Program-made: the position numbers and the translations under genes
In this document: positions 1-56,345 of the stretch, piece after piece
How the letters are laid out: each line of letters starts with the position of its first letter
How positions within the stretch are numbered: the first letter of the stretch is position 1
The notes under the pieces: model-generated
What the model saw: the letters and a program-made list of their open reading frames with translations, nothing else
Told to the model about the DNA's origin: nothing
The model's database searches: none
Assembly: GCA_963702025.1 (NCBI GenBank)
Contig: OY969699.1
Coordinates: 704,001-768,000, forward strand
Source: an uncultured bacterium
GTDB taxonomy: Bacteria; Babelota; Babeliae; Babelales; Vermiphilaceae
Reading direction: 5' to 3'
Length of the DNA stretch: 64,000 nt

Positions 1-781
1 TGAGTGCTTCTACATGAGCCTTGTGGGCAATCAGCTCTTCTACTACATCTGCTAAGTGATGAACAATTGCACAATGCAGAGGAATTCTTCCTTTGGCATC
101 GCGCATGTTAATGAGAGCCCCACCCTTGATGAGTGCTTGGACCGTCTCTAAAGCATTCTCTTTATGAAGAGTGTTGTCTGTTGCCAAATGCAATGGTGTT
201 TCCTCGGTAATAATTGTTTGTGCATTAATCTGTGCACCAAAAGAAAGAAGCAACGGTATTGCTTCTGGCCTGCATTTCATGGCGGCATAATGTAAAGGAG
301 TTAATCCATTTTCTGAACAACAGGGCGCATTAACTTTTGCCCCGGCATGAATGAGTAATGATATTGTGCGTTGACTACCGCTTGCAGCTGCCTCATGGAG
401 AGGGAAACTACCATCATCGGCGACTGCGTTAATATCTGCTTTGTTGCGTATCAATTCTTCTACAATGTGTTCGTGTCCATTGTTTGCCGCAAAATGAAGC
501 GGGGTTCTATTATAGGTTGTCCGCGCATTCACATGTGCCTTATATTTGATGAGGAGTTCAACCATTTTGAGATCGCCAGCGTTGGCAGCATTATGTAAGG
601 GCGTCCAGCGAAATGATTCGGTAATATCTGGATTAACCCCATTTTTTAATAAACTTTCTATGATTTCATAGTCCTTATTTTTCGCTGCCATCAATAATTG
701 TATATGCTTTGCCGGTATGGGGTCCATAGCAAAAGAAAGTGCACATGTCATACCCAAAATAGATACATAAAGAAGTTTCAC
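1..781 (-). CDS. Ankyrin-repeat protein with signal peptide, runs off window start
   Basis: Manual translation from GTG at 781: MKLLYVSILGMTCALSFAMD...WTPLHNAANAGDLKMVELLIKYKAHVNARTTYNRTPLHFAANNGH. Not in the ORF track because it is truncated. Confidence 0.9.
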   Translation of the reverse strand, partial: MKLLYVSILGMTCALSFAMDPIPAKHIQLLMAAKNKDYEIIESLLKNGVNPDITESFRWTPLHNAANAGDLKMVELLIKYKAHVNARTTYNRTPLHFAANNGHEHIVEELIRNKADINAVADDGSFPLHEAAASGSQRTISLLIHAGAKVNAPCCSENGLTPLHYAAMKCRPEAIPLLLSFGAQINAQTIITEETPLHLATDNTLHKENALETVQALIKGGALINMRDAKGRIPLHCAIVHHLADVVEELIAHKAHVEAL

Positions 782-916
782 GGTTGTTCCTTTAATCATA
801 AAATTAAAAAGAAATTAAAATTAGGTATAAGTGTAATCAACGAGGCAACTAAAGGCTAGTGCTTATTTGTGCATATAAGTAAAAATAAGATTATGATTTA
901 GGTATGCATAGGATCT

Positions 917-1744
917 CTAAAAAAGTTTGTAAAACAAAAAGTCAGGAATACTTTTAATAAACCAAGCAATTAAACGCCAGCGTTTGGTGACATACGCATG
1001 CTCCCTTTTTTGTTCAATTGCATCGGCAATCTGCCTCGCTGCCTCTTGTGGTGTTGCGCGCCAAAAATCTGAAGGTTCTTGGCTCGGGTCACAGGCGCCC
1101 CGCATTGCCGTATAAACCAGACCGGGTTCAATGGTGGTAACATAAATTGGCTTATTTAATTTCACAAATCTGCCACGCAATCCATGTAAGAATGTCGAAA
1201 CGTATGCTTTTGACGCACTATAGGTTGGCGCTGCACTTGAACCGCGCAATGCGATGATGCTTGATATACCAACTAAATGGCCGCTGCCTTTTTCTATAAA
1301 ATAATCGCTGGCAACGCTGGCCATGGCGGTGAAACCTAAAACGTTGATATCAATAATCTCTTTTTGTTTTTCCCATGCCAAATCGCAATTGCCCACCGCG
1401 GCATTGATTACGATGATATCCACGCCGCCCATTTCTTTGATCAGCTCTTTGAGTTGCGTTTGCGCTTCTTGCGTTTTGGCAATATCCATTTGTTGTACAT
1501 AAGTTGGTGATGGAATCTCTTTGGCAATTGTGTGCAAAAGATGTTCGCGTCTGCCGGTTAATCCAACAATGGCGCCTCTTTTTGCCATCTCTTTTGCAAG
1601 TGCTTCTCCAATGCCGGAAGTTGCGCCGATAATGATTACTTTTTGTTGCGAATGAGTTCCATTATTGCGGTGCCAATGGGAACAGAATGCGTAAAATCCT
1701 GAGAACAAAAGAAGAATAGTGGCAATAAATTTTGTTTTATTCAT
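917..1744 (-). CDS. Short-chain dehydrogenase/reductase (SDR) with N-terminal hydrophobic segment
   Basis: GATSGIG Rossmann motif, NAA, YSASK catalytic motif. Start taken at MNKTKF (1744). Confidence 0.9.
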   Translation of the reverse strand: MNKTKFIATILLLFSGFYAFCSHWHRNNGTHSQQKVIIIGATSGIGEALAKEMAKRGAIVGLTGRREHLLHTIAKEIPSPTYVQQMDIAKTQEAQTQLKELIKEMGGVDIIVINAAVGNCDLAWEKQKEIIDINVLGFTAMASVASDYFIEKGSGHLVGISSIIALRGSSAAPTYSASKAYVSTFLHGLRGRFVKLNKPIYVTTIEPGLVYTAMRGACDPSQEPSDFWRATPQEAARQIADAIEQKREHAYVTKRWRLIAWFIKSIPDFLFYKLF

Positions 1745-1757
1745 CAAATAATCCAAC

Positions 1758-4239: not shown

Positions 4240-5130
4240 CTATTTTCTGTTCTTTACATCTTTAATTGATGGTTGAAATTCTTCTATCGAGAAAGGGCAT
4301 TCTTGTTTTATATCAACATAGGGCAATCCATGTTTTTTATAAATTGCTTGAAGCGCAGCTATTTTTCTTAATCGTTCTTCTCGTGGCTCTGTCCAGATAA
4401 CATCGATATGTGCCTCCGTATTTTCAACTTCAAACAGATAGACATTGTTGTTTTTGTTTTTCCGTAATTCACAATACAATCTGCGCGCATCGTGAATTGA
4501 AAGTTGAAAATCGTTGACGCTGTGCATAATAATGATGGGAATGTTTGGTGATAATTTTTTGGCTGATTCAAAAGCGCTTATTCCCCATGGGCTATAACTA
4601 GGAAAAAATTTTAATTTGGCTGCCCACGGCAATATAAATGTTGGAAATAGAGAACTTGAAGTAATAGGAACTTCGGATTTAGCAGTGTGTGCAATTGCGC
4701 TGTTGCCTGAACCTAAAACTGCCTCGAGCACCACACAACGGGCAATTTTTTCCTGTTCTTCATGAGATTTTTGTGCAAGCCAATTTACTATAGTGGCCGA
4801 ACCCTGTGAAATGCCACAAATTATTGTGGGTGGTCGGTTATTTTTATCTTTAAATGCCGGATCGTTATCAAATTGTTCTTGAAAATGTTTGATGCAGTTT
4901 GTTTGACCTAAATCAATAAGGTTCGGATCTTCTAATACTTTATAACAAGAATAACTGCTGGCGTTAACAATATGATAATCTATAAATGAACCACCACCAA
5001 GCCCATTTTGACCGGGTAAAATAATCGAATAAAAATCGACATTTTTTTCATCATTTTTTTCCATTGTGAAAGTCAGAGAGCTGAAGCATAGAAATGCCAG
5101 CGATATATTTTTTTGTTTAACAAAATTCAT
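4240..5130 (-). CDS. Exported alpha/beta-hydrolase
   Basis: GISQG nucleophile elbow, HSVND, later His; signal peptide followed by ME. Confidence 0.75.
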   Translation of the reverse strand: MNFVKQKNISLAFLCFSSLTFTMEKNDEKNVDFYSIILPGQNGLGGGSFIDYHIVNASSYSCYKVLEDPNLIDLGQTNCIKHFQEQFDNDPAFKDKNNRPPTIICGISQGSATIVNWLAQKSHEEQEKIARCVVLEAVLGSGNSAIAHTAKSEVPITSSSLFPTFILPWAAKLKFFPSYSPWGISAFESAKKLSPNIPIIIMHSVNDFQLSIHDARRLYCELRKNKNNNVYLFEVENTEAHIDVIWTEPREERLRKIAALQAIYKKHGLPYVDIKQECPFSIEEFQPSIKDVKNRK

Positions 5131-5993: not shown

Positions 5994-7166
5994 CTATTGG
6001 ATTGCCGCTGCTAATTCAGAAGTAAAATTATTTTTGTTGTACACAATTCCTTTGAATCCAAGTTCTTGAGCCGCAGAAACGTTTGCCCGAGAATCATCAA
6101 TAAAGAGTGATTCTTTTGGGTTCAATGAATGGTGGGCTAATAATTTTTCATAAATTAAAGGATCCGGTTTTACCGAATCAACTTGAAATGAACACATAAT
6201 GCCATCAAACATGGCAAACAATTCCGAATGTGACGCAATATACATATCGTAGGATTCTCGAGAAAGGTTAGATAAAAGATAAACATCAAACCCTTCTGTT
6301 TTTAACATTTTAATGTGTCCAATCATTTTTTCATCGAAAGGCCTTTGCGGTGATAAGTAGCGTTCAAAGAGTTTTTCAATATGTGCTTTTTTAAACGTGG
6401 TGCTTAATTCATTAACAGTTTTTTCTTGTGATGATTTGCCTTTTTGCCAATCAATCCAAGCTTTTGCTTGAGCAATCGTTGCAAAATTTGCCGGTATTGC
6501 CGAATCAACTTTTCTTATTTCTTCAACAAATCCTTTTACATCACCTTCTAATAACACACCACCAAGATCAAAAATAATATTTTTTAAATGGTTATGATTT
6601 TTCAATTGGCCCATTGATACGTTTGTTATATCGAGATTTTTCTGGATCGTTGTAATAATTGTGCGCATCATGGCAGGACTTGCAGACCGATAATTTTTTA
6701 CATTCATGTCATACGGTTTGCCATAGCAAGGATCTTCAAAAATATGTTCCTCTTTAGTGGTGTTATCGATGATAGTCATTGGCTTTGGCATGCGGGGTAT
6801 AAAATGCCAATGAGTATGGGTTCCTTCCTGGCCGGCGAGGTTCATAAGACAGGCAACGTTCACTAAATCAGCTTTAAATGATTTTTTTAACGAATTTTCA
6901 AGAACTTTTTCAAATTGCCCGAATTCTTTCCAATGTTCCTCGTGCCATTCAGACAATGAGGCAATGTGTTGATGAGTTTGAAGAAATATGCGAGGAACGC
7001 GAAGATCTCGTGGATCCAAACTTGCGTAAAATAACTTACTTCTGGCGATAGCAATGTCTTTTGCGGCAAATGGTGTGCAAGGATGGCAAATAGTTGCCGG
7101 TCGATGCATGGGATGTGAACTCTGGAATACCAAAGATCCTAAGAGTAATAATTGGGCTATTTTCAT
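5994..7166 (-). CDS. HIT-domain / HAD-phosphatase fusion with signal peptide
   Basis: HTHWHFIPR histidine triad, then FDLGGV...LSN...KPDPLIY...FIDD. Confidence 0.85.
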   Translation of the reverse strand: MKIAQLLLLGSLVFQSSHPMHRPATICHPCTPFAAKDIAIARSKLFYASLDPRDLRVPRIFLQTHQHIASLSEWHEEHWKEFGQFEKVLENSLKKSFKADLVNVACLMNLAGQEGTHTHWHFIPRMPKPMTIIDNTTKEEHIFEDPCYGKPYDMNVKNYRSASPAMMRTIITTIQKNLDITNVSMGQLKNHNHLKNIIFDLGGVLLEGDVKGFVEEIRKVDSAIPANFATIAQAKAWIDWQKGKSSQEKTVNELSTTFKKAHIEKLFERYLSPQRPFDEKMIGHIKMLKTEGFDVYLLSNLSRESYDMYIASHSELFAMFDGIMCSFQVDSVKPDPLIYEKLLAHHSLNPKESLFIDDSRANVSAAQELGFKGIVYNKNNFTSELAAAIQ

Positions 7167-10107: not shown

Positions 10108-11211
10108 ATGAAGAAATTAGCACTATTACCACTCATTTTTGCCTTTAATGGCATAAAAGCCATGGATTTAACCAACCCCAAACTCTTATCAAGGCCACCT
10201 CAATCGCAGCAGCTTGATAGGGCCCTCAATATCGATCTTGAAGCTAATTTAGCCGGTAAAAGTAACCTTAAGTCAACGTTTTACAGTAGTTATGGCCATC
10301 AAATCAACATTAATCCCATTCACCCTCTGAGCCTTAAGGCATGCTGCCTTTTAGCTCTTGATAAAAATGACATTTTTATTGAGTATGGCAGATGGTCGAA
10401 ATTACCGGAAGAACTAAGGGATCTTATTGATTTTACGGAAGAAACAAAGCTTCGTGCAAAAAGAGATTTGTTGCCCTTGCGAGCCGTTATTGCAAAAGAT
10501 GCTGCCCGCGTTGAGCTGTTCTTGGGAATGTTGTCACACGAGGGATGCTGCCAGATGGTGAATGAACTTGCCTATACCGCTGCAAGTAATGGCAACGATG
10601 AGGCTCTTGCCTATTTGCTTACCAAAATTACCGACGTTAATACTATTAAATATTACCGTAACGATATTACGCCACTCTGGGAAGCAGCAGATAAAGGGCA
10701 TCTTGCCTGTGTAAAATTATTGGTTGTGCATGGCGCCACTATCAATGCAGAATGTAAAAATAGTCTTCCATGGCCGGCAACATATGAAACTGCTTTAATG
10801 GCTGCCGCGCGCAATGGACACGCGGAAATTGTTGCATTTCTTAAGAAACACGGTGGCATGGATCTTGCAATGATTCAGGCGCAAAAAGAGGCGGCCGCTC
10901 AGCAAGAAGCTGCCCGAAAAAAGGCACTTGAACCACGATTTCTTGCCGAAGCGGCTATTGGCAATGTTGAAGCGGTAAGAAGATTATTGGATGAAGGTGT
11001 TAATTATAATTGTACCGATTCGCAAGGTCGTACTGCTTTACAGTTGGCGCGACAAAATAATTATCAGGATGTGGTAACTATGTTACGGCTCTTTATAATG
11101 CGAAGGCTTCAAAATAGAGTACTCGAGCATAATTATGATGCAGAATGGGCAGGCGTTGGCAACGGGCCCGCAGGCGTCACAGTTATCGGCATGTTGCTTG
11201 ACGTTGATTAA
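10108..11211 (+). CDS. Exported ankyrin-repeat protein with SOCS-box-like motif
   Basis: Signal + MD; PLSLKACCLLAL...LPEELRDLI; TPLWEAADKGH, TALMAAARNGH, TALQLAR. Confidence 0.88.
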   Translation: MKKLALLPLIFAFNGIKAMDLTNPKLLSRPPQSQQLDRALNIDLEANLAGKSNLKSTFYSSYGHQININPIHPLSLKACCLLALDKNDIFIEYGRWSKLPEELRDLIDFTEETKLRAKRDLLPLRAVIAKDAARVELFLGMLSHEGCCQMVNELAYTAASNGNDEALAYLLTKITDVNTIKYYRNDITPLWEAADKGHLACVKLLVVHGATINAECKNSLPWPATYETALMAAARNGHAEIVAFLKKHGGMDLAMIQAQKEAAAQQEAARKKALEPRFLAEAAIGNVEAVRRLLDEGVNYNCTDSQGRTALQLARQNNYQDVVTMLRLFIMRRLQNRVLEHNYDAEWAGVGNGPAGVTVIGMLLDVD

Positions 11212-11295: not shown

Positions 11296-12111
11296 TTACA
11301 TTGTTTTGCAGGAATTTTTTCCGGCTGCATGATCAGCTTCTTTTTTTTCAATTGCTTCTTCAGATAACTCTGCATAAAGCGCTTTTTGCAATGGTGGTAG
11401 TTGATCACAGCTGATCATTTGTGCTGATGCACTATTTATAGCTTTTTCGTCTTCATTTTTTAACGCTCGAATAAGAGAGTAGCGTGAACTAAGATAAGTG
11501 GGCATTATTTTTTTAAGTTCGCGCCGCTTATCTATGTAATCCAAAGATTCATCAGACTGATCATGCTCCAGTTGTTGCTTTATATCTTTGTCGCTCTCCA
11601 CAGCTATTGTTTCAAGCATTTTTTTTAGATTTTCTTCATCGGGAATAGTAAACAATTGTTCGAAAAGTCCGACTCTATGTATTTGTAAAATTAATTTTTC
11701 GTCAGAGGACATGTTTTCGACAACTTGTTTTATTGCTGTTTTTGTGTCGCTGCCATGGAGCCGTTTTGCGCGTAGTATTTTGCCGACAAGATCACCACTT
11801 TCAAACGAATCAACTTTTTCTTTGCTTGTTTTTTCAATGAGTTCTAGCGCTTGTTTACAACTTTGAATAAATAATGCATTTGGTTTGGATAGGTGGGGAA
11901 AAGAGATGGTTTGTGCATTTACTGCTTTTATGCGCCCTTCACCTAAAATGAATGATTCAAGGAGCGAGAGAAGGGATTGGTTTTGATCAATGTATTGATA
12001 AGTTGTTATTTGTTTATTATTGTTGTTTTCGGGATTCTGAGTGGTTCCTTCCATAGCCATGAGAGGAACGGAGAATGATAACAACACTGCGAGTAAAGCA
12101 TGATTATTCAT
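11296..12111 (-). CDS. Exported hypothetical helical protein with C-terminal CaaX (CKTM)
   Basis: Signal + ME; ends NSCKTM*. Confidence 0.75.
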   Translation of the reverse strand: MNNHALLAVLLSFSVPLMAMEGTTQNPENNNNKQITTYQYIDQNQSLLSLLESFILGEGRIKAVNAQTISFPHLSKPNALFIQSCKQALELIEKTSKEKVDSFESGDLVGKILRAKRLHGSDTKTAIKQVVENMSSDEKLILQIHRVGLFEQLFTIPDEENLKKMLETIAVESDKDIKQQLEHDQSDESLDYIDKRRELKKIMPTYLSSRYSLIRALKNEDEKAINSASAQMISCDQLPPLQKALYAELSEEAIEKKEADHAAGKNSCKTM

Positions 12112-12403: not shown

Positions 12404-13918
12404 TTAAGAAAACAATTTCTGCAAAAAAGACATTTTACACACTGCATATCGTTGTCGCGCAATTTCTTGCAAACGGCGACTTTCTGAATTACCCATAGTA
12501 TTTATGAGTTCACTATCAACCTTCATACCATTCTTTTTTTGGCGTTCTGCGATAAAAAGTGCCAGAAGTTGGTCAAGCGATGCATGATTAGTGATTGCGC
12601 GATGCGTATAATAGAGGTAGGGATAATAACGCGTATCAAGCAGATAAAATCCTTTTATAATGATAGCAGATCCATCGGGAATTATTGTGTGATAAACCCA
12701 TGCCGGTTCTGCCGGATATGTTTTAAGACACGTTTGTTTAAGACAATGCACTAAGCAGTTTTCTGAATTATGTGGGCCTGCATAGAGTAGCGAATCGGCA
12801 CTCAGTTGTGTTTCATGATTGAATTTACCAATATTGTAGGCTATTAAGGACCAAGTGCGCGAGTTAATACGATTACGCAGAAGATTAATTACTCTATTTT
12901 TTTTAGAAATTCCTACCAAGAGAGTATTTTCATCGGCGAAAGAAAATTGTTCCACTTTATCATGATAATGCAAGGAATGGAAAAGTTGACGTGTTGTAAA
13001 ATTCCACAATGCTATAGTTTTATCTTGAACCGTGGCGATTTGCTGCCCGGATGGGCTGAATTGAGCAAGTGTTTTTTCTGTTCCGCCGGTATTTGAGGTA
13101 ACATGGGGCAAGGTGAAGAGTGGTGTGCCCTCAATGGTGTTGATTGTGATGGTATTCTCAGCGGGCTGATGGGAAATATAATAGTTTTGTGTTGGATCCA
13201 ATATCGGCTTTACAAATGGCGAGTTAATCAGCCGCTTTTTATTATTGGTTACTACATAGTTTTCGATTTTCTGGGGAATTTTATTGCAGCCGGCGATCTC
13301 TTTTTTTGCAATATCATACGTAAATAAATTAGATTTGGTGAGTATATCATGAAAAAAGATGTGGCTGCTGTCATCAGAGAAGGTAAAATAGGTGCAGATA
13401 TGTCCGATTTCAGTATCGCCGCAACTTATTTGTGGATGTACTATGCGGTTTTCTTTGCCGCTTGGCAGATGGATAAGCGCTAAAGTATCAACCGGCCATT
13501 GGGGTTCATTATTGGGGAGTCTTTTTTGTGTGATATAACAAAGATATTCGGAATTAGGGCTAATTTTAAAATTGCTGTCGCAGTATATCTCTTTGTCGGA
13601 TAGTCGTAGTGGCTTTGCATTATTGATCTGTTCAAATATTTCCGCTTTTTCTTTGACGATTGTTGTTTTGACATGTTCTTGTAATTCTTGGGGTAACAAT
13701 CGTGCTTTTTTGCGCAATAGGTGCAATTGATCAAGAGAATGTTTGGTGTTATTAGGATCGAAAGTGTCAGCGAATGTGCAGGCGGCTAATTCTTTTAAGC
13801 TGGGCAGTTCTTTAAATGCTTTTTTGTGTGTATCAGTTTTGATGGTTAGCTTTTCCATGCCTAAACTGGTAAAAAAAATACAGAGGGATAAGATAAAATG
13901 TTTTTTGCAAAGCTTCAT
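12404..13918 (-). CDS. Exported beta-propeller (WD40-like) protein with SOCS-box-like N-terminus
   Basis: Signal + ME; LPSLKELAA...LPQELQEHV; ISPNSEYL and FSPSGQQIAT...IALWN blades. Confidence 0.75.
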   Translation of the reverse strand: MKLCKKHFILSLCIFFTSLGMEKLTIKTDTHKKAFKELPSLKELAACTFADTFDPNNTKHSLDQLHLLRKKARLLPQELQEHVKTTIVKEKAEIFEQINNAKPLRLSDKEIYCDSNFKISPNSEYLCYITQKRLPNNEPQWPVDTLALIHLPSGKENRIVHPQISCGDTEIGHICTYFTFSDDSSHIFFHDILTKSNLFTYDIAKKEIAGCNKIPQKIENYVVTNNKKRLINSPFVKPILDPTQNYYISHQPAENTITINTIEGTPLFTLPHVTSNTGGTEKTLAQFSPSGQQIATVQDKTIALWNFTTRQLFHSLHYHDKVEQFSFADENTLLVGISKKNRVINLLRNRINSRTWSLIAYNIGKFNHETQLSADSLLYAGPHNSENCLVHCLKQTCLKTYPAEPAWVYHTIIPDGSAIIIKGFYLLDTRYYPYLYYTHRAITNHASLDQLLALFIAERQKKNGMKVDSELINTMGNSESRRLQEIARQRYAVCKMSFLQKLFS

Positions 13919-14664: not shown

Positions 14665-14680
14665 AATACACCTCCATTTA

Positions 14681-15424: not shown

Positions 15425-16579
15425 TTATGAGCCAATTACCTGCTTGGCAAGTTGGATTGCGCGCGCAATAGCTTTGGCAGCTTCATCTTTGAGATCAATG
15501 CGAACTGCCGATTCAACAACAAATTCATTGCCTTGTGCATCTTTATAAGATTGTTGCGGCCATGATATTTTAGGCGTAATTGAAAGAATATCAACAAGCT
15601 GATTTTGTGGAGAATATTTGAGAAAGAAATTTTTAGATGAAGGATTATTGGTAACTGTTTCAGAGATAAGGGTGCGATACTGCCCTATGCTTCTTCTTAA
15701 AAGACTTATTTCATCTTGAATATCGGCGGTGGCAATAACATCCGGATATGATAAGTTATTCTTTTTTCTATAGCTAAGGTATTCGGCTTGAGTGTTATGG
15801 ACCAGTAAAGTGATCTTTGCATCCGGAAACATCTTTTTAAGACAAGTAACAAATTGCTTAATTCGAGCTTCTTGATAAAAAATTTCACCACTGATTTGTG
15901 TTACTAATTCATGTGCAGGCGTCTGAGGATCTCCGCCCCATTCTTTGTGTGTCAAGTCGATAATCTGATCAATTATTGGATTTAAGCAAATAGTATAAGT
16001 GGGGCTTATTTCACGGGTATCTTTTAAGAGATCACGTGATGCAACATACGGTGTAAAGTTTATATCTATCAGATTAATTATTAGATGTGCATCCGGTTTT
16101 TGCGCTAAGGTTCGGGTTGCAATAAGTAAATCTTGTAGCATTCCGCCCGATCCAAATGAAGTATATTCAACCTTTGGCTGAGTTTGTAATTTTTTGAGCA
16201 ATGCATCACTTACTATTTCTTCAAAGATTCTTCTAAAACCGGGATTATCTGTGCGTGTTAAAAGGCAAAAATCTGCTGAACATTCTCCTAATAAAAAGAA
16301 AGGACATTGTTGTTCATATTTTGCAATTATTACTTGAATAGCCTGATACATTTCCTGCGGGCTTAATTTGTTAACATCTTGCTCTTCCAGCCATTTGCAT
16401 TCTTTAGCAAATTCAGCGCGAACTTTGTGGGCAATTTCAAGCGCTTTTACCGGATTATTAATTAAAAAAGTAGGGTTATGCACTGTTTCTTGGCGATTGG
16501 TATCCATGCCAATAAGGGGAATAGCAAAGGATAACAGTGAGCAGATTGTTAAAAATTTGAATACTTGTTGAGTTTCCAT
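15425..16579 (-). CDS. Exported hypothetical protein, possible SAM-methyltransferase-like fold
   Basis: Signal + MD; YTSFGSGGMLQD followed by IINLID resembles motifs I and II. Confidence 0.5.
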   Translation of the reverse strand: METQQVFKFLTICSLLSFAIPLIGMDTNRQETVHNPTFLINNPVKALEIAHKVRAEFAKECKWLEEQDVNKLSPQEMYQAIQVIIAKYEQQCPFFLLGECSADFCLLTRTDNPGFRRIFEEIVSDALLKKLQTQPKVEYTSFGSGGMLQDLLIATRTLAQKPDAHLIINLIDINFTPYVASRDLLKDTREISPTYTICLNPIIDQIIDLTHKEWGGDPQTPAHELVTQISGEIFYQEARIKQFVTCLKKMFPDAKITLLVHNTQAEYLSYRKKNNLSYPDVIATADIQDEISLLRRSIGQYRTLISETVTNNPSSKNFFLKYSPQNQLVDILSITPKISWPQQSYKDAQGNEFVVESAVRIDLKDEAAKAIARAIQLAKQVIGS

Positions 16580-35056: not shown

Positions 35057-35065
35057 TGTCTATTT

Positions 35066-35194: not shown

Positions 35195-35196
35195 CT

Positions 35197-44257: not shown

Positions 44258-44971
44258 ATGAAAAAGCACAGTACATTTATTCTGGCCGGATTGGTTTTCT
44301 TGCCTGTATTTCCAATGGAAAATACATCTAAAACTGAACTGCATACTGCTGCAGCAAATAGCTCATTAAAAAATAAAGTACAAAAAATAATTGAGTCGAA
44401 TCCAGTGCAAATACATCAAAAAGATGGCGATGGCAATACCCCATTGCACGAGGCTGCTTATTATGGTTGTACAGAAAATGCTGATCTTTTACTGCGATAC
44501 GGGGCTCAGGTTAATTCGCTGAACTATAAGGGCGAAACGCCGTTGGATAAAGCACATTATAAGTGCCAGTATGCGCTGGAGAAATTACTCAAAAAACATG
44601 GTGGCCAGTATTCAAAATATAAAGATTCTCTCAAAGAACTTGATATCTTATTATGGCAAGCAAGTGGAAATTTTGATTATGAAAAAATGCTTGATCTTCT
44701 CAAGCGTGGCGCTAATCCCAATGCAATGCATGATGATGGCAGTGGTGTTAAAATGACGCCTCTTGCTAGAATTGCGCGATCTGCCGATTACACAACACCA
44801 CATAAGGTTATGCAGGTTTTATTAGATTATGGTGCTAACATAAATCTAGAAGATAGTGCAGGCTGGACCCCTTATGGAAGAACATCGCAAGGTGCAGATA
44901 GCCAAACCGGTGACTCTATTGGAAAATTCTTTAGTCAAAGGAATGCAAGATTTAAAAAAGGAAGCATTTAG
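44258..44971 (+). CDS. Exported ankyrin-repeat protein
   Basis: Signal + ME; GNTPLHEAA, GETPLDKA, GWTPY. Confidence 0.9.
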   Translation: MKKHSTFILAGLVFLPVFPMENTSKTELHTAAANSSLKNKVQKIIESNPVQIHQKDGDGNTPLHEAAYYGCTENADLLLRYGAQVNSLNYKGETPLDKAHYKCQYALEKLLKKHGGQYSKYKDSLKELDILLWQASGNFDYEKMLDLLKRGANPNAMHDDGSGVKMTPLARIARSADYTTPHKVMQVLLDYGANINLEDSAGWTPYGRTSQGADSQTGDSIGKFFSQRNARFKKGSI

Positions 44972-45016
44972 CACATACACTCAAAAAAAATATAAATGTA
45001 TAAAATTGGAGGAATT

Positions 45017-46282
45017 ATGAAATTACATAAATCAGTACTATTAATAACCGGTTTGATTTCCGCAATGCATGCAAGTGGCATGCAGCCGGTGCAATATCTA
45101 AGAAATGCGCAGCAAGAAATACTCATTCAGTTGGTAAGCTCAGAAAAGACATCCGTATTCGTACCGAGGGAAAGTGCATTGCAAGCCGCCACTCTGGCGA
45201 CTATTTTAAACCCCCCGCAAGAAGCAGGAACATTCCAAGAAACTCAGGCAAAAAGTATCACATTGAGAGCAATTGATAATGCAACGCTTAATATTGTTGC
45301 GCAAATTATGCGCTCAGCTGATTGCCATCATGAGTTGAAGGGGAAAGCATTTTTAGATGCAATAAGCAAAGAAATTACCATTAACGATGACCAGATTATT
45401 CCGGTATTGAATGCATGCAATTTTCTTGATTATGCTCCGGGAATCAGATTAATTGCTATGGAAATGATCAACAAGCCAGCGATTATTAATCATGTAATAA
45501 AGAGCATTCAAACGAATCAACTTTCTGATGATACTGCCAAGCAAATAGCAAAAATCTATTATTTGATTACGCAGAAGGATCTTGAAGGAGTTGATAAAAA
45601 ACCGATTGTTACAATTGGTTTTTCAATCCGTGATTATCTTGAATATTTGCCTGATGTTATCAAAAAACGTAAAACTGAGACTGAATTAGATCTAAGTGGC
45701 TTGCGGCTCAATGATACTGATGGATTACGAGATATTCCTGACATTAATAATCTGCAATATTTATTGCTTTATAGCAATCAGCTGACGCAATTGCCTGCTA
45801 CGCTTTTTAATGGGCTTAATAATCTGCAATATTTATACCTTCATAACAACCAACTGACGGAATTGCCTGCTACGCTTTTCAATGGCCTTAATAATCTGCG
45901 AGTACTACATCTTGATAACAATCAACTTACGCAGTTGCCTGCTACGCTCTTCAATGGGCTTAATAATCTGCAAGAACTATATCTTATGAGTAACCAACTG
46001 TCGAAATTGCCTGCTACGCTCTTCAATGGGCTTAATAATCTTCAATTGCTATATCTTGATAACAACCAACTGACAGAATTGTCTGCCATGCTCTTCAATG
46101 GTCTTAATAATTTGCGATATTTATCGCTTTCTAACAACCAACTGACGGAATTGTCTGCCATGATCTTCAATGGGTTTAATAATCTGCGAGTATTAACTCT
46201 TTTTAATAACCAACTGACCGATGAAAACAAAGAACAGCTAAGGAATGCATTGCCTAGGATAACTTTTTTAAATTTAGATTAA
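45017..46282 (+). CDS. Exported Skp1/BTB-like + leucine-rich-repeat protein
   Basis: Signal + MQ; LVSSE...VLNACNFLD; seven 24-aa LRRs LNNLxxLxLxxNQLTELPATLFNG. Confidence 0.9.
   Translation: MKLHKSVLLITGLISAMHASGMQPVQYLRNAQQEILIQLVSSEKTSVFVPRESALQAATLATILNPPQEAGTFQETQAKSITLRAIDNATLNIVAQIMRSADCHHELKGKAFLDAISKEITINDDQIIPVLNACNFLDYAPGIRLIAMEMINKPAIINHVIKSIQTNQLSDDTAKQIAKIYYLITQKDLEGVDKKPIVTIGFSIRDYLEYLPDVIKKRKTETELDLSGLRLNDTDGLRDIPDINNLQYLLLYSNQLTQLPATLFNGLNNLQYLYLHNNQLTELPATLFNGLNNLRVLHLDNNQLTQLPATLFNGLNNLQELYLMSNQLSKLPATLFNGLNNLQLLYLDNNQLTELSAMLFNGLNNLRYLSLSNNQLTELSAMIFNGFNNLRVLTLFNNQLTDENKEQLRNALPRITFLNLD
45745..46220 (+). repeat. 72-bp tandem coding repeats (LRR), about 7 units
   Basis: AATAATCTGC...AACCAACTGACG..TTGCCTGCTACGCTCTTCAATGG repeated. 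Confidence 0.9.
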
Positions 46283-46296
46283 AAATGTGAGGAATT

Positions 46297-47562
46297 ATGA
46301 AATTACATAAATCAGTACTATTAATAACCGGTTTGATTTCCGCAATGCATGCAACCGGCATGCAGCCGGTGCAATATCTAAGAAATGCGCAGCAAGAACT
46401 AGTATCATCCATGATCGAATTGGTAAGCGCGCAAGATAAATCAGTATTTGTACCAAGAGAAAGTGCATTGCAAGCCGCTACTCTGGCGACTATTTTAAAC
46501 GCTGCGCAAGAAGCAGGAGCGTTTCAAGAAGCACAGACAAAAAGTATTCCGTTAAGAATAATTGATACTGCAACGTTGGAAATTATTGGGCAGATTATGC
46601 ACTCGGCTGATCGCCATAGCCAGTTGAAAGGAAAGGCATTTTTAGAAGCAATAAGCAAAGAAATTACCATTGCCGATGAACGGTTTATTTCCGTATTAAA
46701 TGCATGCAATTTTCTTGACTATGCTCCCGGAATCAGATTAATTGCTATGAAAATGATCAATAGGCCTACCATTATTGAGCAGGTAATAAAACTTATTCAA
46801 TCAAATCAGCTTTCTGATGATACTGCCAAGCAAATAGCAAAAATCTATTATTTGATTACGCAGAAGGATCTTGAAGGAGTTGATAAAAAACCGATTGTGA
46901 AGATTAGTTTTTCAATCCGTGATTATCTTGAATATTTGCCTGATGTTATCAAAAAACGTAAAACTGAAACCAAATTAGATCTAAGTGGCTTGCGGCTCAA
47001 TGATACTGATGGATTACGAGATATTCCTGGCCTTAATAATCTGCAAGTTTTATGGCTTTATAGCAATCAGCTGACGCAATTGCCTGCTACGCTTTTTAAT
47101 GGGCTTAATAATCTGCAATATTTATACCTTCATAACAACCAACTGACGGAATTGTCTGCTACGCTCTTCAATGGCCTTAATAATCTGCAAGTTTTATGGC
47201 TTTATAGCAATCAGCTGACGCAATTGCCTGCTACGCTTTTTAATGGGCTTAATAATCTGCGAGTATTAAATCTTTCTAACAACCAACTGACGGAATTGTC
47301 TGCTACGCTCTTCAATGGCCTTAATAATCTGCAAGTTTTATGGCTTTATAGCAATCAGCTGAGTGAATTGTCTGCCATGCTCTTCAATGGTCTTAATAAT
47401 TTGCGATATTTATCGCTTTCTAATAACCAACTGACGGAATTGCCTGGTACGCTCTTCAATGGGCTTAATAATCTGCAATATTTATCGCTTTCTAATAATC
47501 AACTCACCGATGCTAATAAAGAGCAAATAATGAATGCATTGCCTGGGGTAAATATTTTTTAA
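46297..47562 (+). CDS. Exported Skp1/BTB-like + LRR protein, tandem duplicate
   Basis: Nearly identical N-terminus to 45017; seven LRRs. Confidence 0.9.
   Translation: MKLHKSVLLITGLISAMHATGMQPVQYLRNAQQELVSSMIELVSAQDKSVFVPRESALQAATLATILNAAQEAGAFQEAQTKSIPLRIIDTATLEIIGQIMHSADRHSQLKGKAFLEAISKEITIADERFISVLNACNFLDYAPGIRLIAMKMINRPTIIEQVIKLIQSNQLSDDTAKQIAKIYYLITQKDLEGVDKKPIVKISFSIRDYLEYLPDVIKKRKTETKLDLSGLRLNDTDGLRDIPGLNNLQVLWLYSNQLTQLPATLFNGLNNLQYLYLHNNQLTELSATLFNGLNNLQVLWLYSNQLTQLPATLFNGLNNLRVLNLSNNQLTELSATLFNGLNNLQVLWLYSNQLSELSAMLFNGLNNLRYLSLSNNQLTELPGTLFNGLNNLQYLSLSNNQLTDANKEQIMNALPGVNIF
47034..47510 (+). repeat. 72-bp tandem coding repeats (LRR), about 7 units
   Basis: Same unit; QVLWLYS cassette occurs three times. 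Confidence 0.9.
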
Positions 47563-47582: not shown

Positions 47583-48014
47583 TCAAGAACCTTTTTTTTC
47601 GGGGTATTTGGCAGCAAGTTGCGCTTTCCACTTTTCAACTTCTAATTCTTCAGAAAGTGTGAGCGGTTGATTGCATGCCTTTTTTAACGCTAATAGTGGG
47701 CCCAACTCAGCAACCCCTTGTTTTAATTGTTCCGTTTCTTGGGGTGTTGTTTCACCAATCGCAAATTTAACTTTAAGGGCAGAATCAGTTTCTATTGGAA
47801 GATTCTTTGGTGACTTCACCAGAAATGGTCCCTGATACCGGCCGGATGTTTTATATTCTTGGAGAGCCCTGAGATGTTGGAAGGTGAATAATTCCTCGAG
47901 TGTGTAGCGGGCTTTTCGTTTATTGGTTCTTTGGAGTTGTAAACATTTTTCCATGCTGTTGAGAATAGGTGCAATGAGCATGATGGCGATTAAAATATTG
48001 AAACACTTTTGCAT
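47583..48014 (-). CDS. Exported hypothetical protein
   Basis: Signal + ME. Confidence 0.65.
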   Translation of the reverse strand: MQKCFNILIAIMLIAPILNSMEKCLQLQRTNKRKARYTLEELFTFQHLRALQEYKTSGRYQGPFLVKSPKNLPIETDSALKVKFAIGETTPQETEQLKQGVAELGPLLALKKACNQPLTLSEELEVEKWKAQLAAKYPEKKGS

Positions 48015-49190: not shown

Positions 49191-49775
49191 ATGCCAATGA
49201 AAAAAGCAAGACTCGTTTTAATAGCCGGCGCAACCATTGCCGCTTCAGCATTTTGCATGGAAGAACCACCAAAAACTATTATTGAATCAGATTCAACACA
49301 AATAACAGCAGAAACTTATGTCAAAGTTACCTCTTTGTTACGTGCATTTATGCAGGGTACCATCGAGGCTAACCAAGACGGCACGGTACTCTATCGCAAA
49401 TATTCCGATTCTTCTACAGCATATAAATACTCATTACAACATGCCGCCAAGCAATTGAAAGAACTTTATAATGCAATTATTCACATAGAGAGTGGATGGC
49501 AGCAATTTCCAGAAGAAAAATTAGGAGCTGAATACAATTCAAAAAGCGAGGAAATAAAAGCTCACAGTGAATTGCGCGAGTTCTATAGATTTATGGAAAA
49601 CGAAGATATATTTAATGTGACAAATGCAATAAGACAAACAATTATTGAGAATAGAGATACATTAAAAAAAGCATTCAAAGCAGCCGAAGAAAGCACTGCT
49701 GTATCCGATGTTGCTCGCCAGATCAATGAAGCCCGCAAAAAAACCTTGCGTCCACCTGCTCCGATAATTAAATAA
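49191..49775 (+). CDS. Exported hypothetical protein
   Basis: Signal + ME. Confidence 0.7.
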   Translation: MPMKKARLVLIAGATIAASAFCMEEPPKTIIESDSTQITAETYVKVTSLLRAFMQGTIEANQDGTVLYRKYSDSSTAYKYSLQHAAKQLKELYNAIIHIESGWQQFPEEKLGAEYNSKSEEIKAHSELREFYRFMENEDIFNVTNAIRQTIIENRDTLKKAFKAAEESTAVSDVARQINEARKKTLRPPAPIIK

Positions 49776-52623: not shown

Positions 52624-53502
52624 TCATGTATTCTTTCGCTGAGCCTTTGCTCTCACTTCTTGAGGAAGTTCACGCTTTGAATCTAACAGGTCCATGAGTT
52701 CTACATCAAAGTGGTCTGGAAAACATCGGACTATTTCTAAAGGACTAGTAAAGTAATAGCTTTCATCACCACATGCAATGATTCCTTGATAATAGCTTGG
52801 CCTAAAACTAAACTCGGTTGCTTTTTCATACGCGCAAAAGCCCTTTTTTATCAGAGTTGTTATAATGGTGCGCGCATTTTTCTTAATCTGTTCATCAGCA
52901 GCATTGCAAAAGGTGGATAGAGCTATTGAAAGGGGAAAATCATCTGCTGACACATTTTCATTATCCAAAATTACTTTTTTTTCATCTAACATGGTTGCTA
53001 CAAGATCCGGATTATTAAGCCGCACCGCTTCTTCAAGTGGTCGAATGCGGCGATTACTTGATAAATCAAAACTACTGGTAACGGTATCTACCTCCGCACC
53101 CATTTTCACTAAAACTTTTGCATTTTTTATTGCTTTGGATTGCAGCGCCGCCGCTAATAGATTAAAGGTATAGGTAATGGGACACATCATGCGAGATCGA
53201 TTTTCTTGCCAGGTAAAATTGGGGTTTAATGTTTCATCTTTTAGAAAACATTCCAGAACTTCTGCGTATTTTTCATCTTTATAAAGCTTTGCTAAACAGC
53301 GGCCATCATGAGTAGATTCTGCTAAACCAACAGCTTTTGTAATTTTTTCAAAACGTGCTTGTAATTTTTGGTTGTACTTTTCATTTTTTACTTTTGCAAC
53401 TTTTTCAAACGCTGCCTTGAGAGGATCACTCTTATCCATCGCGATTGTTAAGAATGGCATTCCCATAAAAATGATAAGCATTATTTTGTTCATTTCATTC
53501 AT
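52624..53502 (-). CDS. Exported ankyrin-like protein
   Basis: Signal + MD; LVKMGAEVD, RPLEEAV, FPLSIAL. Confidence 0.75.
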   Translation of the reverse strand: MNEMNKIMLIIFMGMPFLTIAMDKSDPLKAAFEKVAKVKNEKYNQKLQARFEKITKAVGLAESTHDGRCLAKLYKDEKYAEVLECFLKDETLNPNFTWQENRSRMMCPITYTFNLLAAALQSKAIKNAKVLVKMGAEVDTVTSSFDLSSNRRIRPLEEAVRLNNPDLVATMLDEKKVILDNENVSADDFPLSIALSTFCNAADEQIKKNARTIITTLIKKGFCAYEKATEFSFRPSYYQGIIACGDESYYFTSPLEIVRCFPDHFDVELMDLLDSKRELPQEVRAKAQRKNT

Positions 53503-53616: not shown

Positions 53617-54273
53617 TTAAGGCTTCATTTTACTTTCAAGCATTTGCTGCAACTTTGGATCGGCAGGCATAGAAAAATCGGTTATCAGTTTAAGATCAGC
53701 TTTTGCATCGAGCAATCGTTGTATTATCTGATAATATGGTTCCTTTTCCTGTTCGTCAGACAAAGTACATCGTGCAATAGCGCAGCTGAGTGGGTTAAGA
53801 ATGCGAGATCTATTTGGTTCAGCTTTATGTTTCAGTAAGCTATCAACCATTGCCACATTACCATCGTGAGCCGCAATAGCCAATGGCGGCCAATGTGCGG
53901 CACAGCCCGCTGCTACAACACCCGCATTATTGGGATTTGCACCACCTTCGATTAACACCGATGCATTCTCATAGGCTTTACTATGTAATGCAGTTGTTAG
54001 TAGATACAACACTGAATCTGCCGTTGTTCCCCCTTCAGTCCATGAGGTGTCAGGATCAAGCAATTTTTTTTGCAATACCTCTTGCAATATGGAAACATAT
54101 TTTTTTTGCGTGCAAAGTGCTTTAATGATGGTAATACCGTATGGATTTTGAGCTAACGACTTTGAATTTATCTGTTCCGTGCGCCCTAACAAATAGGCTG
54201 TATCTATTTCGGTTTGCATGGCATTCATGCCATTTATCAAAAAGCTTGTGAACAGTAACAAGAAAACTCTCAT
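53617..54273 (-). CDS. Exported ankyrin-repeat protein
   Basis: Signal + MQ; LIEGGANPN, PPLAIAAHDGN. Confidence 0.82.
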   Translation of the reverse strand: MRVFLLLFTSFLINGMNAMQTEIDTAYLLGRTEQINSKSLAQNPYGITIIKALCTQKKYVSILQEVLQKKLLDPDTSWTEGGTTADSVLYLLTTALHSKAYENASVLIEGGANPNNAGVVAAGCAAHWPPLAIAAHDGNVAMVDSLLKHKAEPNRSRILNPLSCAIARCTLSDEQEKEPYYQIIQRLLDAKADLKLITDFSMPADPKLQQMLESKMKP

Positions 54274-54290
54274 AAAAATCCTTTATATTC

Positions 54291-55064
54291 TTATTTCATA
54301 TCATCTTTTTGTTGCATAGTTTCAAACAACTGCACCACTTCCTCCGCACCTTTTTCTTTGGCTAATTCAAAACTTGTTTTTTTGCCGTCCAGTTCACTGC
54401 TGCGAGCATCAGGATCTGCCCCATGTTGAGTGAGCAAACGGATAATGTTAAATGAATTTTTTTTTCTATCCTTGACCTCGGCTAACCACTTTGAATCGTT
54501 CCGGAATTTAGCTTTTGCTTCACTTTCTAACTCCAGACTATAAAGGTACACCGCATAGACAAGAGGCCTGCGATAAGCCAAGAGCAAATTAAAATCGGCA
54601 TTATACTTGCCCAGCAGTTCCACCATTTTACAGTCTTGTTCTCCAATTGCATAAAAGATTGGATAATAACTATGTCCAAAGAAATCAGGGGTCCCGGGAT
54701 TTGCAGTTACGTTAACGTCTGCGCCATAGCGCAAGAGTAATTCCGTTTGTTTATATTTATCATTACATACACATGCGTGCAATAAGCGCGCTTCATCATA
54801 GCGCTCCGTATTTTTCCAGCGGTAATTGGGATCGAGTTTTTTCTTTTCCAAAAGATATGCAAAAAGTGGCACATATTCATCAAGAAGAATATCATGAAAT
54901 AGCTGCCGTTCTTTAAAATTACCCGCATAGTAATTGGTTACCATTTCAGTAATCTCATTAGTTTTTCGCTCTTTAATTTCATGTACAATCTTTACCACAT
55001 CTCCACGCGTCATGGCCCAAGAAGATACACTTAAGAAGCACAGTAGAAAAAAAATAGGTTTCAT
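54291..55064 (-). CDS. Exported ankyrin-repeat protein
   Basis: Signal + MT; LLRYGADVN, LTQHGADPD. Confidence 0.82.
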   Translation of the reverse strand: MKPIFFLLCFLSVSSWAMTRGDVVKIVHEIKERKTNEITEMVTNYYAGNFKERQLFHDILLDEYVPLFAYLLEKKKLDPNYRWKNTERYDEARLLHACVCNDKYKQTELLLRYGADVNVTANPGTPDFFGHSYYPIFYAIGEQDCKMVELLGKYNADFNLLLAYRRPLVYAVYLYSLELESEAKAKFRNDSKWLAEVKDRKKNSFNIIRLLTQHGADPDARSSELDGKKTSFELAKEKGAEEVVQLFETMQQKDDMK

Positions 55065-55073
55065 ATTGATCCT

Positions 55074-56345
55074 TTACAATACTACGCAACCGCTTTTAGT
55101 TTGATCAGCCGATTGCACAGATGAAGCTCGAAGAGATTCGTTAAAATTTTCTTCTATGAATTTTCTATTAAGTTCTTCTAATTCCTCTTTAGATACACCC
55201 CATCGATTAGGATCATCTTCTTTTTCCTTATTTGCCGATTGCACAAGTGTCTTAATCAGTGCCGCTTTTTTAAAATCACCCTGAGGAATATCCCACAATG
55301 TTAATTCTTCATTGCCACTGAGCGCCTGAATTTGCGTAGCATCTTTATTAAACTGCAATGAATAGATCAACGGAATTGCACCACCGGAAAATGCCAAAAC
55401 AGAATGCGGCTCATTTTTATTGTTCGGATCAGCAAAGCCAATGCTACTACTGTCCTCTGCCTCAATGGCCATTAATAATGTTTTATCATCAGGACTATAG
55501 CTGAGCCAATCAGATTCAAATCCTGCTTTCCCGCTACAATCATACTTACTCAACCATTGACCAAAGGCATTCATCACCACGGTATTTTTTCCCGTAGCTG
55601 GATCGTAAAGGTAAATGCGATTTTTTGTGGTGCCGGCAGCAATTTGTGTGCCGGCATGATTAAAGGCAACAGGGTTGCTTCCCCATCCACCAAGATTAAT
55701 AGGATCTGAAGGGTTTATAATTATTTGATACTTACCAGCGGCAAAATCCCATATTTTAATGCATTTCTCATTAAACACTGCGAACGATTTACCACTCGGA
55801 TGATAATGGCCCCCCGAAATACCTTCGTCACTTGGAAATTCGGTAATTTTTTGGCCGGAAATGGTGTCCCAAATAATATTCGAATTAGTAAATGCTGGAT
55901 TTGCCACGCCAGCAATTTCATTATTATTCTTCGGATTGTATTCTGCCCAACAATAGTTGCCTTCAAATCTCTGAGTATTTTGACCAGTTTCAACATTGAA
56001 TAAATTTACCCCATCAAAAAATCCGGCAATAATCGTTCCATCATAATTATAGGTTGCGCCAATACAGGAGCTTACCATTTTAATCTTGCATTCACTTTGA
56101 TACGGTGCAGCAGTATTCCATATTTCTATATAATTCCCTTCTGTAGCTGCCACCATTTTACCATCCGGTGAATAACAGGAAGCAAGAACTACTTTATTGT
56201 TTTTATCTTTTATTAACTCGGCAACTTCATGCGGCTTTTTCCATCCGACTTTTTTAATAAGAATATCTTTGGCTTTTACTTGCTCCATACCAAAAAACGG
56301 AATAACCCAAAGAATGCCTATTAAAAAATTGAAGATTAACCGCAT
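55074..56345 (-). CDS. Exported WD40/beta-propeller protein with CaaX (CVVL)
   Basis: Start MRLIFN after AAGGAG; signal + ME; YSPDGKMV, IKIWD, LTLWD; ends SGCVVL*. Confidence 0.85.
   Translation of the reverse strand: MRLIFNFLIGILWVIPFFGMEQVKAKDILIKKVGWKKPHEVAELIKDKNNKVVLASCYSPDGKMVAATEGNYIEIWNTAAPYQSECKIKMVSSCIGATYNYDGTIIAGFFDGVNLFNVETGQNTQRFEGNYCWAEYNPKNNNEIAGVANPAFTNSNIIWDTISGQKITEFPSDEGISGGHYHPSGKSFAVFNEKCIKIWDFAAGKYQIIINPSDPINLGGWGSNPVAFNHAGTQIAAGTTKNRIYLYDPATGKNTVVMNAFGQWLSKYDCSGKAGFESDWLSYSPDDKTLLMAIEAEDSSSIGFADPNNKNEPHSVLAFSGGAIPLIYSLQFNKDATQIQALSGNEELTLWDIPQGDFKKAALIKTLVQSANKEKEDDPNRWGVSKEELEELNRKFIEENFNESLRASSVQSADQTKSGCVVL

Follow-up and report, generated by a model that had tools for sequence, protein, structure and literature searches.

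What does it mean that, in a parasite genome, two dozen neighbouring genes for unrelated proteins place a methionine directly behind the predicted export signal? The question is raised by a 64,000-nucleotide stretch from an uncultured member of the Babelota (contig OY969699.1, positions 704,001 to 768,000; hereafter the window), in which a preliminary description had noticed 26 open reading frames (ORFs) with Met right after a Sec-like signal and had supposed that cleavage exposes a eukaryote-like N-terminus. Babelota (Dependentiae, TM6) are intracellular parasites of protists, and the genome that contains the window (G000; a single contig of 1.596 Mb, ~39% GC) encodes ATP/ADP translocase genes. 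All 26 ORFs are present, with exactly the dipeptides counted (15 Met-Glu, 4 Met-Asp, 4 Met-Gln, 2 Met-His and 1 Met-Thr). Below, this post-leader motif is called the tag. Its Met is internal and stands at the predicted cut, it is coupled to Glu and Pro further on, and the arrangement occurs independently across protein families and in two phyla. We tentatively lean towards regarding the tag as a selected, host-like N-terminus that avoids turnover by N-degron pathways.

Genes (1544 in G000) were called with a custom codon-model caller, and leaders were recognised with custom scripts, not SignalP, that score the n- and h-regions only. The leader set includes visible false positives (SecA, Ku, CTP synthase), and every cleavage site, and with it every count at positions +1, +2 and +4, is the prediction of a custom heuristic. 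M[EDQ] at residues 15-31 was found in 250 of 730 leader-bearing soluble proteins as opposed to 37 of 719 leaderless ones (Fisher p = 8e-48), in 10/95 proteins with a leader plus membrane segments, and at a background of 4.1% in equal windows deeper within the same proteins. At the DNA level, a start codon followed by a hydrophobic run and Ala/Gly-Met-Glu gave 47 matches in the genome, 43 of them in frame, against 2-10 when Met or Glu was swapped for other residues and none in the reversed genome. The final site rule, which requires a small residue directly before a Met within the c-region, assigns Met at +1 to 339 of the 730 leader-bearing soluble proteins; 261 proteins form a strict carrier set. 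At +2 the 339 have Glu in 172 cases, Gln in 34, Asp in 18, Asn in 16, Ala and His in 14 each, Ser in 13, Thr and Lys in 10 each, Val in 9 and other residues in 29. Glu, Gln, Asp or Asn thus follow in 240/339, compared with 108/365 proteins with another +1 residue, and for Glu alone the contrast is 172/339 to 43/365. Pro stands at +4 in 69/172 Met-Glu proteins, 15/68 with Met-Gln, Met-Asp or Met-Asn, 9/99 with other Met dipeptides and 29/365 without Met. Glu at +2 and Pro at +4 are coupled to Met at +1. Bulky hydrophobic residues (Leu, Ile, Phe, Tyr, Trp) follow the Met in 17/339, as against ~27% after internal Mets. Grouping by BLAST places the 261 strict carriers in 160 components (120 singletons), and the profile survives this dereplication, with Glu 66%, Gln 15%, Asp 8% and Asn 8% at +2, Lys 22% at +3 and Pro 31% at +4. 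In paralog pairs of 20-40% identity the Met is kept in 61/92, while flanking positions are mostly 5-16% identical. Carriers also cluster along the chromosome, with 131 adjacent pairs against 90 ± 7 in shuffles.

Because the caller could have picked an upstream ATG and so created a leader, the starts were tested. A Shine-Dalgarno match of at least four bases precedes 202/261 leader ATGs but only 4/261 inner ATGs, fewer than the 7% seen for deep internal Met codons, and the residues after the inner Met are unlike those after true starts in this genome, which are Lys (17%), Ser (12%), Asn (12%) and Glu (7%). The leader is real and the Met internal. A second translation start giving a leaderless cytosolic isoform, which the preliminary description had offered as an alternative, could appeal to the fact that the residue is always encoded by ATG and that a codon-score caller often chose the inner ATG; in view of the missing Shine-Dalgarno sequences and the deviating +2 residues it was rejected, and we give it hardly any credence.

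The predicted cut lies where the earlier reading had put it. A matrix built on the 12 upstream residues only, and blind to Met, cut exactly before the Met in 178/240 carriers under five-fold cross-validation. Residue -1 of the 261 carriers is Ala in 46%, Gly in 21%, Ser in 17%, Pro in 7%, Cys in 5% and Thr in 5%, and residue -3 is Leu in 25%, Ala in 18%, Ser in 15%, Ile in 11%, Thr in 9% and Val in 9%. With a positive n-region, a hydrophobic h-region and small residues at -3/-1, the carriers match the Sec/signal peptidase I pattern as judged from their sequences. Pro at -1 does occur in the four window carriers for which it had been singled out (SHP, LYP, FHP and VFP), but it is no special feature of carriers (21/339 as compared with 26/365 other proteins). 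Likewise, no clear difference from other leader proteins was seen in the h-region, n-region charge, last residue, basic clusters or Cys parity. Could the processing enzyme itself be the cause? A divergent signal peptidase, or some other protease, might cut best before Met, or after it. G000 has one peptidase S26 gene (signal peptidase I; L010:14873-15850), whose product has Val and Thr where that of E. coli has Ile (QVPTGSM for QIPSGSM and LTKR for YIKR), the change from Ile to Thr being situated just before the catalytic Lys; three relatives checked read WTKR. These residues presumably line the substrate pockets, and the changes may relax the pockets and explain Pro, Cys and Thr at -1. They are what can be said for a peptidase preference. 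Against it, envelope proteins, in which Met at +1 is missing, have to be cleaved by this one enzyme too; a cut after the Met would often put Phe, Tyr, His or Asn at -3, whereas -3/-1 are classical with Met at +1; and G000 has only the single S26 gene. We consider this explanation quite improbable.

Which proteins carry the tag is the more telling question. Locally built profiles recognise 123 ankyrin proteins, 4 further WD40 and 10 further LRR proteins in G000, and Met at +1 was found in 105 of the 124 ankyrin, WD40 and LRR proteins with a called leader, with seven more by eye. In a survey of 20 stretches of 20 kb, of which 4 were picked for secretion or peptidase genes and 16 were distributed along the chromosome, the strict carriers number 53: 10 ankyrin proteins, 1 WD40 protein, 6 of other families and 36 without a family. 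Among Pfam-recognised envelope proteins in these stretches and the window, 1/22 has Met at +1, an S49 peptidase; the set, of which ~8 are anchored or lipoprotein-like instead of being signal peptidase I substrates, consists of TolB, BatC, BatD, BatE, DsbD, two M23 proteins, BamA, BamD, two GspD, GspC, two PBPs, a PASTA protein, an amidase, SpoIID, FKBP, GH3, two thioredoxins and the S49 peptidase. The separation that had been noticed in the window between effector-like and housekeeping exported proteins is borne out by this sample: apart from the S49 peptidase and three outer-membrane-like proteins, the tag is restricted to effector-like proteins. None of eight related outer-membrane-like proteins that are rich in Cys and have Phe as their last residue (L012:14329-19173, L023:1197) has Met at +1. 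Many enzymes of cytosolic type have a predicted leader and no Met at +1; we noted NDP kinase, HIT, peroxiredoxin, ATP-dependent DNA ligase, UDP-GlcNAc 2-epimerase and glycosyl- and methyltransferases (L012:7203, L015:10855, L016:5065, L016:8202 and the L025 cluster). A RimJ/RimL-like GNAT acetyltransferase (PF13302) at L011:15238-15903 has a leader and Met-Ile at +1, and since the PF13302 family includes N-terminal acetyltransferases, the parasite might itself export such an enzyme.

It could also be that the Met is a relic, left at +1 when a leader was added before a whole gene, with no sorting or stabilising role, and that Glu at +2 merely reflects a general Sec preference for an acidic early mature region. 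Ancient envelope proteins would then lack the Met, and the process could recur in any lineage. An HD-family (p)ppGpp hydrolase-like protein with a leader and Met-Glu (L013:702-1445), whose closest leaderless homologs are named Bacteroidota or Salinibacter, lends this account some substance. In an alignment of the best 55 of 120 listed matches, most leaderless homologs have their start 5-20 residues upstream of an anchor column, the Met of the carriers falls 12-23 residues upstream of it, and Met-Glu or Met-Asp opens several of the leaderless sequences; a captured start codon is for these reasons a possible origin of the tag. As a full explanation, however, the relic accounts poorly for the dipeptide, Glu standing at 7% after true starts in G000 and Met-Glu at 11.1% among Arabidopsis starts, where Met-Ala has 21.5% (PMC8037982), as against 172/339. 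Nor is Glu at +2 a general Sec preference, because it is found in only 43 of the 365 proteins without Met. The Met has been kept in diverged paralogs as counted above and in the three closest relatives of the HD protein, which retain VHA/ME (the slash marks the predicted cut) while the length of the linker varies. Furthermore, many leader-bearing enzymes of cytosolic type lack the Met, and there is no relic Shine-Dalgarno sequence and no shared leader cassette. Only 19 of 57,291 pairs share at least 70% of the 45 bases before the Met, all 19 are paralogs and none has unrelated mature parts, so that a mobile leader cassette was rejected. We regard the relic, as a complete account, as unlikely.

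Recurrence across the phylum, which had been anticipated, is real but uneven. A wider DNA pattern (start, hydrophobic run, Ala/Gly-Met-Glu/Asp/Gln/His) has 70 matches in G000, and in the phylum sample of 61 genomes, one order, its density ranges from 0 to 44/Mb with a median of 8.3/Mb, these figures including an out-of-frame background of a few matches per Mb in AT-rich genomes. Nine of the 61, from families f1 and f11, exceed 20 matches/Mb, and one genome has none. Motif density and ankyrin load are no more than weakly correlated (Spearman 0.24, p = 0.07), and the ankyrin-rich relatives G073, G071 and G056 have 3, 7 and 10 matches. In G056, G060 and G061 Ala or Ser is the first residue of many ankyrin proteins; some paralogs in G067, G071, G073 and G055 swap Met for Ile, Leu or Val and often keep the Glu. 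In 89 such proteins of relatives, from stretches mostly chosen around ankyrin matches, the predicted +1 residue is Met in 26, Ala in 15, Ser in 10, Ile in 7, Leu, Thr and Gly in 5 each, Val in 3 and another in 13. Some leaders read MHA/ME or MYA/MQ, in which a Met would be exposed by either cut (L124:17488-18559, L047). Three genomes titled Pseudomonadota (G081, G083 and G084; loci L083, L148 and L108) were not accepted as independent occurrences; each has 20-36 genes in common with G000 at 41-53% median identity, G084 has twin GspD, and by gene content they look like Babelota. A scan of the genome collection with the pattern gave at least 119 matching stretches (80 with flanks), mostly background, and searches for other lineages with DUF2608 homologs and with ankyrin against plasmid sequences gave no useful names. 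Locus L135, in which 4/5 leaders have Met by eye, was not counted because it may be a foreign contig in its metagenome-assembled genome, whose other three stretches have 0/6 and no secretin.

Outside the Babelota one case stands out. Across 150 Alphaproteobacteria, with G121 omitted from the sample, the wider pattern has a median of 0.8/Mb, and only G109 exceeds 6. G109 is an alphaproteobacterium with an ATP/ADP translocase, belongs to the same class as Holospora obtusa but to another order, and shares 39/199 genes with G000 at a median identity of 35%. Thirteen of its 20 pattern matches, on 11 contigs, are in-frame leaders followed by Met-Glu or Met-Asp. In 260 kb chosen blind, Met-Asp or Met-Glu follows 9/60 leaders, as against 2/154 in 71 control loci after removal of the 15 proteins through which those loci had been picked up (p = 2e-4). 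Its carriers include F-box and LRR proteins; the tag is absent from LolA, an M48-TPR protease, M23 and YkuD, and also from one protein each of the F-box and LRR kind; four other genomes of its order have it in 5/38 leaders. Just 1/15 of the G109 carriers has even a weak BLAST match in G000, and the secretins of the two are 24-26% alike. The motif recurs independently in this alphaproteobacterium. No clear enrichment was seen in Holospora obtusa or in most alphaproteobacteria that possess a translocase; H. obtusa has two adjacent TPR-secretin genes (L201:8370-14079), and secretins occur in 19/19 genomes of its order. Among 201 Gammaproteobacteria nothing stood out with a narrower Glu/Asp pattern (at most 15 matches, frames not checked), a null result that is independent of the included genomes G338 and G416.

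If the carriers leave the cell, by what route? The preliminary description had invoked an uncharacterised one, which is not needed because a type II secretion system (T2SS) is present in G000. The parts recognised are two adjacent GspD (one with an N0 domain), GspC, a PilM-like protein, two GspE/PilB-type ATPases and prepilin-like proteins; they might also serve in a type IV pilus. The operon reads gspC, gspD, PilM-like gene, small gene, second gspD (G000:C1:365535-374000; L007:10541-18997), and its two secretins are long (~840 and ~880 amino acids (aa)), side by side and 30% alike, possibly forming a hetero-secretin or a two-channel T2SS. At least two secretins occur in 61/61 genomes of the phylum, and a Candidatus Babeliales genome, with shared genes up to 54-62% identical to those of G000, has the same twin secretins. 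G000 has no TolC and one Omp85, and the T2SS is the only outer-membrane exporter found in it, types III, IV and VI not having been searched for. It is also the only secretion system reported for Babela massiliensis in PMC4378268. Outer-membrane vesicles, described as putative in PMC6561590, where leaders are given for 44% of genes, are a second possible route.

Another explanation is a bacterial sorting tag, Met-Glu-x-Pro being read after cleavage in the periplasm by the T2SS (GspC, the N0 domain of GspD, or a chaperone). Such a tag would tell hundreds of fast-changing effectors from envelope residents, and the preferred residues would drift with the receptor between lineages. Three coupled positions that hold after dereplication to 160 groups agree well with it, and Met-only usage, Glu over Asp, Pro at +4 and the Ile/Leu/Val-Glu substitutes in relatives would fit a binding pocket. 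So does the presence of T2SS genes in G000 without TolC, and of GspE/F-like genes and a secretin in G109 besides a Tad system; a precedent exists in a post-cleavage motif at P2'-P4' that, according to PMC12802150, lipoproteins of Acinetobacter need in order to be transported by the T2SS. On the other hand, twin secretins are universal in the phylum, yet ankyrin-rich genomes may have few matches and motif density is only loosely tied to ankyrin load, and lineages whose secretins are distant from one another have come to one and the same dipeptide. According to PMC10128026, no sequence feature is common to the known T2SS substrates, and the receptor is hypothetical. A predicted complex of GspD 118-300, GspC 28-200 and a 43-residue carrier N-terminus scored at zero and is evidence neither way. 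A sorting tag is in our estimation possible but doubtful, though it stands not far behind the explanation that we prefer.

We tentatively prefer the host-side reading, in which the following steps are envisaged. Translation begins at the upstream ATG and yields a protein with a normal Sec leader, as the Shine-Dalgarno pattern shows, and the single signal peptidase I is predicted to cut just before the Met. Carriers would leave the periplasm, most likely via the type II system, and act in the protist host, where Met-Glu, Met-Gln, Met-Asp or Met-Asn would be kept by selection because the end is read on the host side. Met is no N-degron, and an acidic or amide residue at +2 would block trimming by methionine aminopeptidase and avoid the Met-hydrophobic degron, so that the exposed end would resemble that of a native protein of the NatB class. 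Envelope residents would never meet the host proteasome and would show no such bias, relatives may achieve the same by having Ala or Ser at +1, and some of the Mets may derive from the start codon of a captured gene. As had been pointed out, Glu, Asp, Asn and Gln after Met are the substrate set of NatB (PMC9692967), and the degradation signals in Table 1 of PMC8037982 are N-terminal Glu, Asp, Gln, Asn, Lys and Arg and Met-hydrophobic. We favour this reading because the ends used are those native to eukaryotes in these accounts, namely Met before Glu, Gln, Asp or Asn, or a small residue before anything, and because unrelated lineages with distant secretins reach the same dipeptide. It is also supported by a motif load that varies from 0 to 44/Mb while secretins are present in all 61 genomes. 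In the relatives, stabilising +1 residues (Ala, Ser, Thr, Gly, Val, Pro) occur in 38/63 non-Met ankyrin proteins compared with 94/264 other exported proteins.

Several observations weigh against the host-side reading. The 38/63 just given rests on paralogs and predicted sites. Ala or Ser would also avoid degradation, yet G000 uses Met almost alone; Glu over Asp (172 to 18) and the coupling to Pro at +4 look like a shaped binding site, and Pro at +4 is left unexplained. By eye, twelve ankyrin proteins of G000 are without the Met, and the likely +1 residue of several of them is Lys, Arg, Glu, Gln or Phe, while the S49 peptidase and the three outer-membrane-like proteins (Met-Val, Met-Asn) carry it and are probably envelope residents. 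Ile, Leu and Val, by which the paralogs mentioned above replace Met, make up 15 of the 89 predicted +1 residues in relatives, and two of them, Ile and Leu, act as N-degrons in yeast as well as in animals. The plant N-degron ligase is described in PMC8037982 as having no pocket for Ile or Leu. Finally, acetylation of a delivered protein by NatB is doubtful because NatB is ribosome-tethered (PMC9692967). The host-side reading and the sorting tag are not mutually exclusive, and it is conceivable, if rather uncertain, that a free Met-Glu(-x-Pro), uncovered by signal peptidase, is the address by which unrelated, non-lipidated proteins pass through the twin-secretin T2SS into the host in Babelota and, independently, in one order of energy-parasite Alphaproteobacteria, doubling as a degradation-proof, host-like end.

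The tag resembles several known post-cleavage signals. In Plasmodium, PEXEL has the form RxLxE/Q/D, and its cleavage by plasmepsin V exposes a new N-terminus on unrelated host-targeted proteins. As there, the carriers are unrelated and mature position 2 prefers Glu over Gln over Asp (172, 34 and 18 of 339), whereas no Arg or RxL is conserved before the cut (Arg is absent from the eight commonest residues at every position from -8 to -1 of the 261 carriers), the -3/-1 site is a classical signal peptidase I site and Met is fixed at +1. Type IV prepilins are cut at G/F or G/M before a hydrophobic stretch and have Glu at +5, unlike the tag, whose Met lies after the hydrophobic stretch and whose Glu peaks at +2 and stands at 11% at +5. 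With NatB substrates the 240 predicted mature ends share N-terminal Met-Glu, Met-Asp, Met-Asn or Met-Gln and a Met retained before a large side chain; those substrates are nascent chains at the ribosome in the account of PMC9692967, unlike the Met here, which is internal, has no start signal and would be exposed by proteolysis in the bacterium, and Glu is far more dominant than among Arabidopsis starts (11%; PMC8037982). The Acinetobacter T2SS motif (GGG or ND(N/D) at P2'-P4') is likewise short, post-cleavage and distinguishes exported from resident proteins, but as reported in PMC12802150 it follows a lipidated Cys and depends on GspN, while the tag has a free Met and no lipobox (lipobox-like patterns in 10/339 Met+1 proteins and 18/391 others) and its export is a prediction. 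In the Lol +2 rule and the Bacteroidetes lipoprotein export signal, too, residues right after the cut set the destination, though for lipoproteins only; both signals are mentioned in PMC12802150. For Babelota, many ankyrin and orphan proteins with Sec leaders have been reported as here (79/126 and 78% of 98; PMC4378268, PMC6561590), with no post-leader motif described in those accounts, the main text of PMC6561590 containing neither 'methionine' nor 'N-terminal'. A search of the ESM Atlas with a 45-residue carrier N-terminus gave no usable match, and the literature searched, which excluded subscription papers and supplements such as the secreted-protein tables of both Babelota papers, held no description of the tag. 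It works like known post-cleavage signals, has the defining features of none and is apparently undescribed.

In the window itself, Pfam bears out the ankyrin, WD40, LRR and BTB folds named earlier, the hydrolase is HAD/HIT-like, the ATP-grasp assignment is weak, and 10/26 carriers have no Pfam family or merely a sub-threshold one. The nine ankyrin proteins (coordinates, with Met codon in brackets) are, on the forward strand, IKA/MD at 10108..11211 (10162), LYP/ME at 22392..24242 (22455) and VFP/ME at 44258..44971 (44315), and, on the reverse strand, SFA/MD at 1..799 (727), LVA/ME at 26131..27687 (27639), ATG/ME at 27730..28818 (28767), which with ME-K-P has the full consensus, AVG/ME at 28924..29988 (29937), one with two possible sites, ING/MN or MNA/MQ, at 53617..54273 (54228 or 54219), and SWA/MT at 54291..55064 (55013). 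The first of the reverse-strand genes runs off the left edge, and its leader starts at ATG 799, not at 781 as first given. The three WD40 proteins are a weak beta-propeller, SLG/ME, at 12404..13918 (13858, reverse), the BTB plus WD40 protein LNG/ME at 24256..26010 (24316, forward) and FFG/ME at 55074..56345 (56288, reverse). Both LRR proteins lie on the forward strand, ASG/MQ at 44996..46282 (45080; its start may be 45017) and ATG/MQ at 46297..47562 (46360). The HIT-like plus HAD hydrolase, SHP/MH, is at 5994..7166 (7109, reverse) and the weak RimK-like ATP-grasp protein, AWS/MQ, at 21391..22377 (21451, forward). Those with no assigned family are, on the reverse strand, TFT/ME at 4240..5130 (5064), LMA/ME at 11296..12111 (12054), LIG/MD at 15425..16579 (16507), LGA/ME at 16644..18923 (18866; none above threshold), AQA/ME at 18941..21112 (21040; sub-threshold DUF4606 only), the small FHP/ME at 30293..30607 (30553), INA/MH at 32262..32750 (32693), LNS/ME at 47583..48014 (47954) and TIA/MD at 52624..53502 (53439), and, on the forward strand, AFC/ME-E-P at 49197..49775 (49257). 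A similar-looking segment directly follows the tag in several carriers (16644-21112, 24256, 44996-47562), BTB being called by Pfam for 24256 only. The exported proteins set against them indeed lack the motif: BatE-like (TPR+SH3) and BatD at 34364..36921 (reverse), within a BatA-E-like operon at 34364-41552 whose BatD and TPR matches Pfam confirms, TolB-like (PD40), LLA/DD, at 56431..57726 (reverse), and DsbD-like, TDA/TT, at 63227..64000 (forward), which runs off the right edge. The window also holds an IS630-family transposase in two overlapping, probably frameshifted ORFs (HTH, DDE_3; 9069-9951) and, in tandem, two paralogous genes whose products (237-238 aa) have neither a leader nor a Pfam family (13948-15394).

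Beyond what had been noticed in the window, the analysis adds the coupling to Pro at +4, the independent alphaproteobacterial case and the Ala/Ser and Ile/Leu/Val-Glu variants of relatives. If the tag marks host-delivered proteins, the genome of this little-studied parasite would encode ~340 candidate effectors, a fifth of its called genes and most without a known domain, and a simple effector predictor for Babelota relatives would follow. The selection of soluble T2SS substrates, for which no common signal is known according to PMC10128026 and PMC12802150, becomes testable with short peptides and reporters; were the sorting tag to prove true, it would be a portable linear T2SS signal for non-lipidated soluble proteins, a matter that these sources treat as unsettled. 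It likewise becomes testable whether bacteria with Sec-dependent export adapt the N-termini of the mature proteins to the N-degron rules of the host, and the fact that two unrelated lineages have the tag suggests that living inside protists imposes a general constraint.

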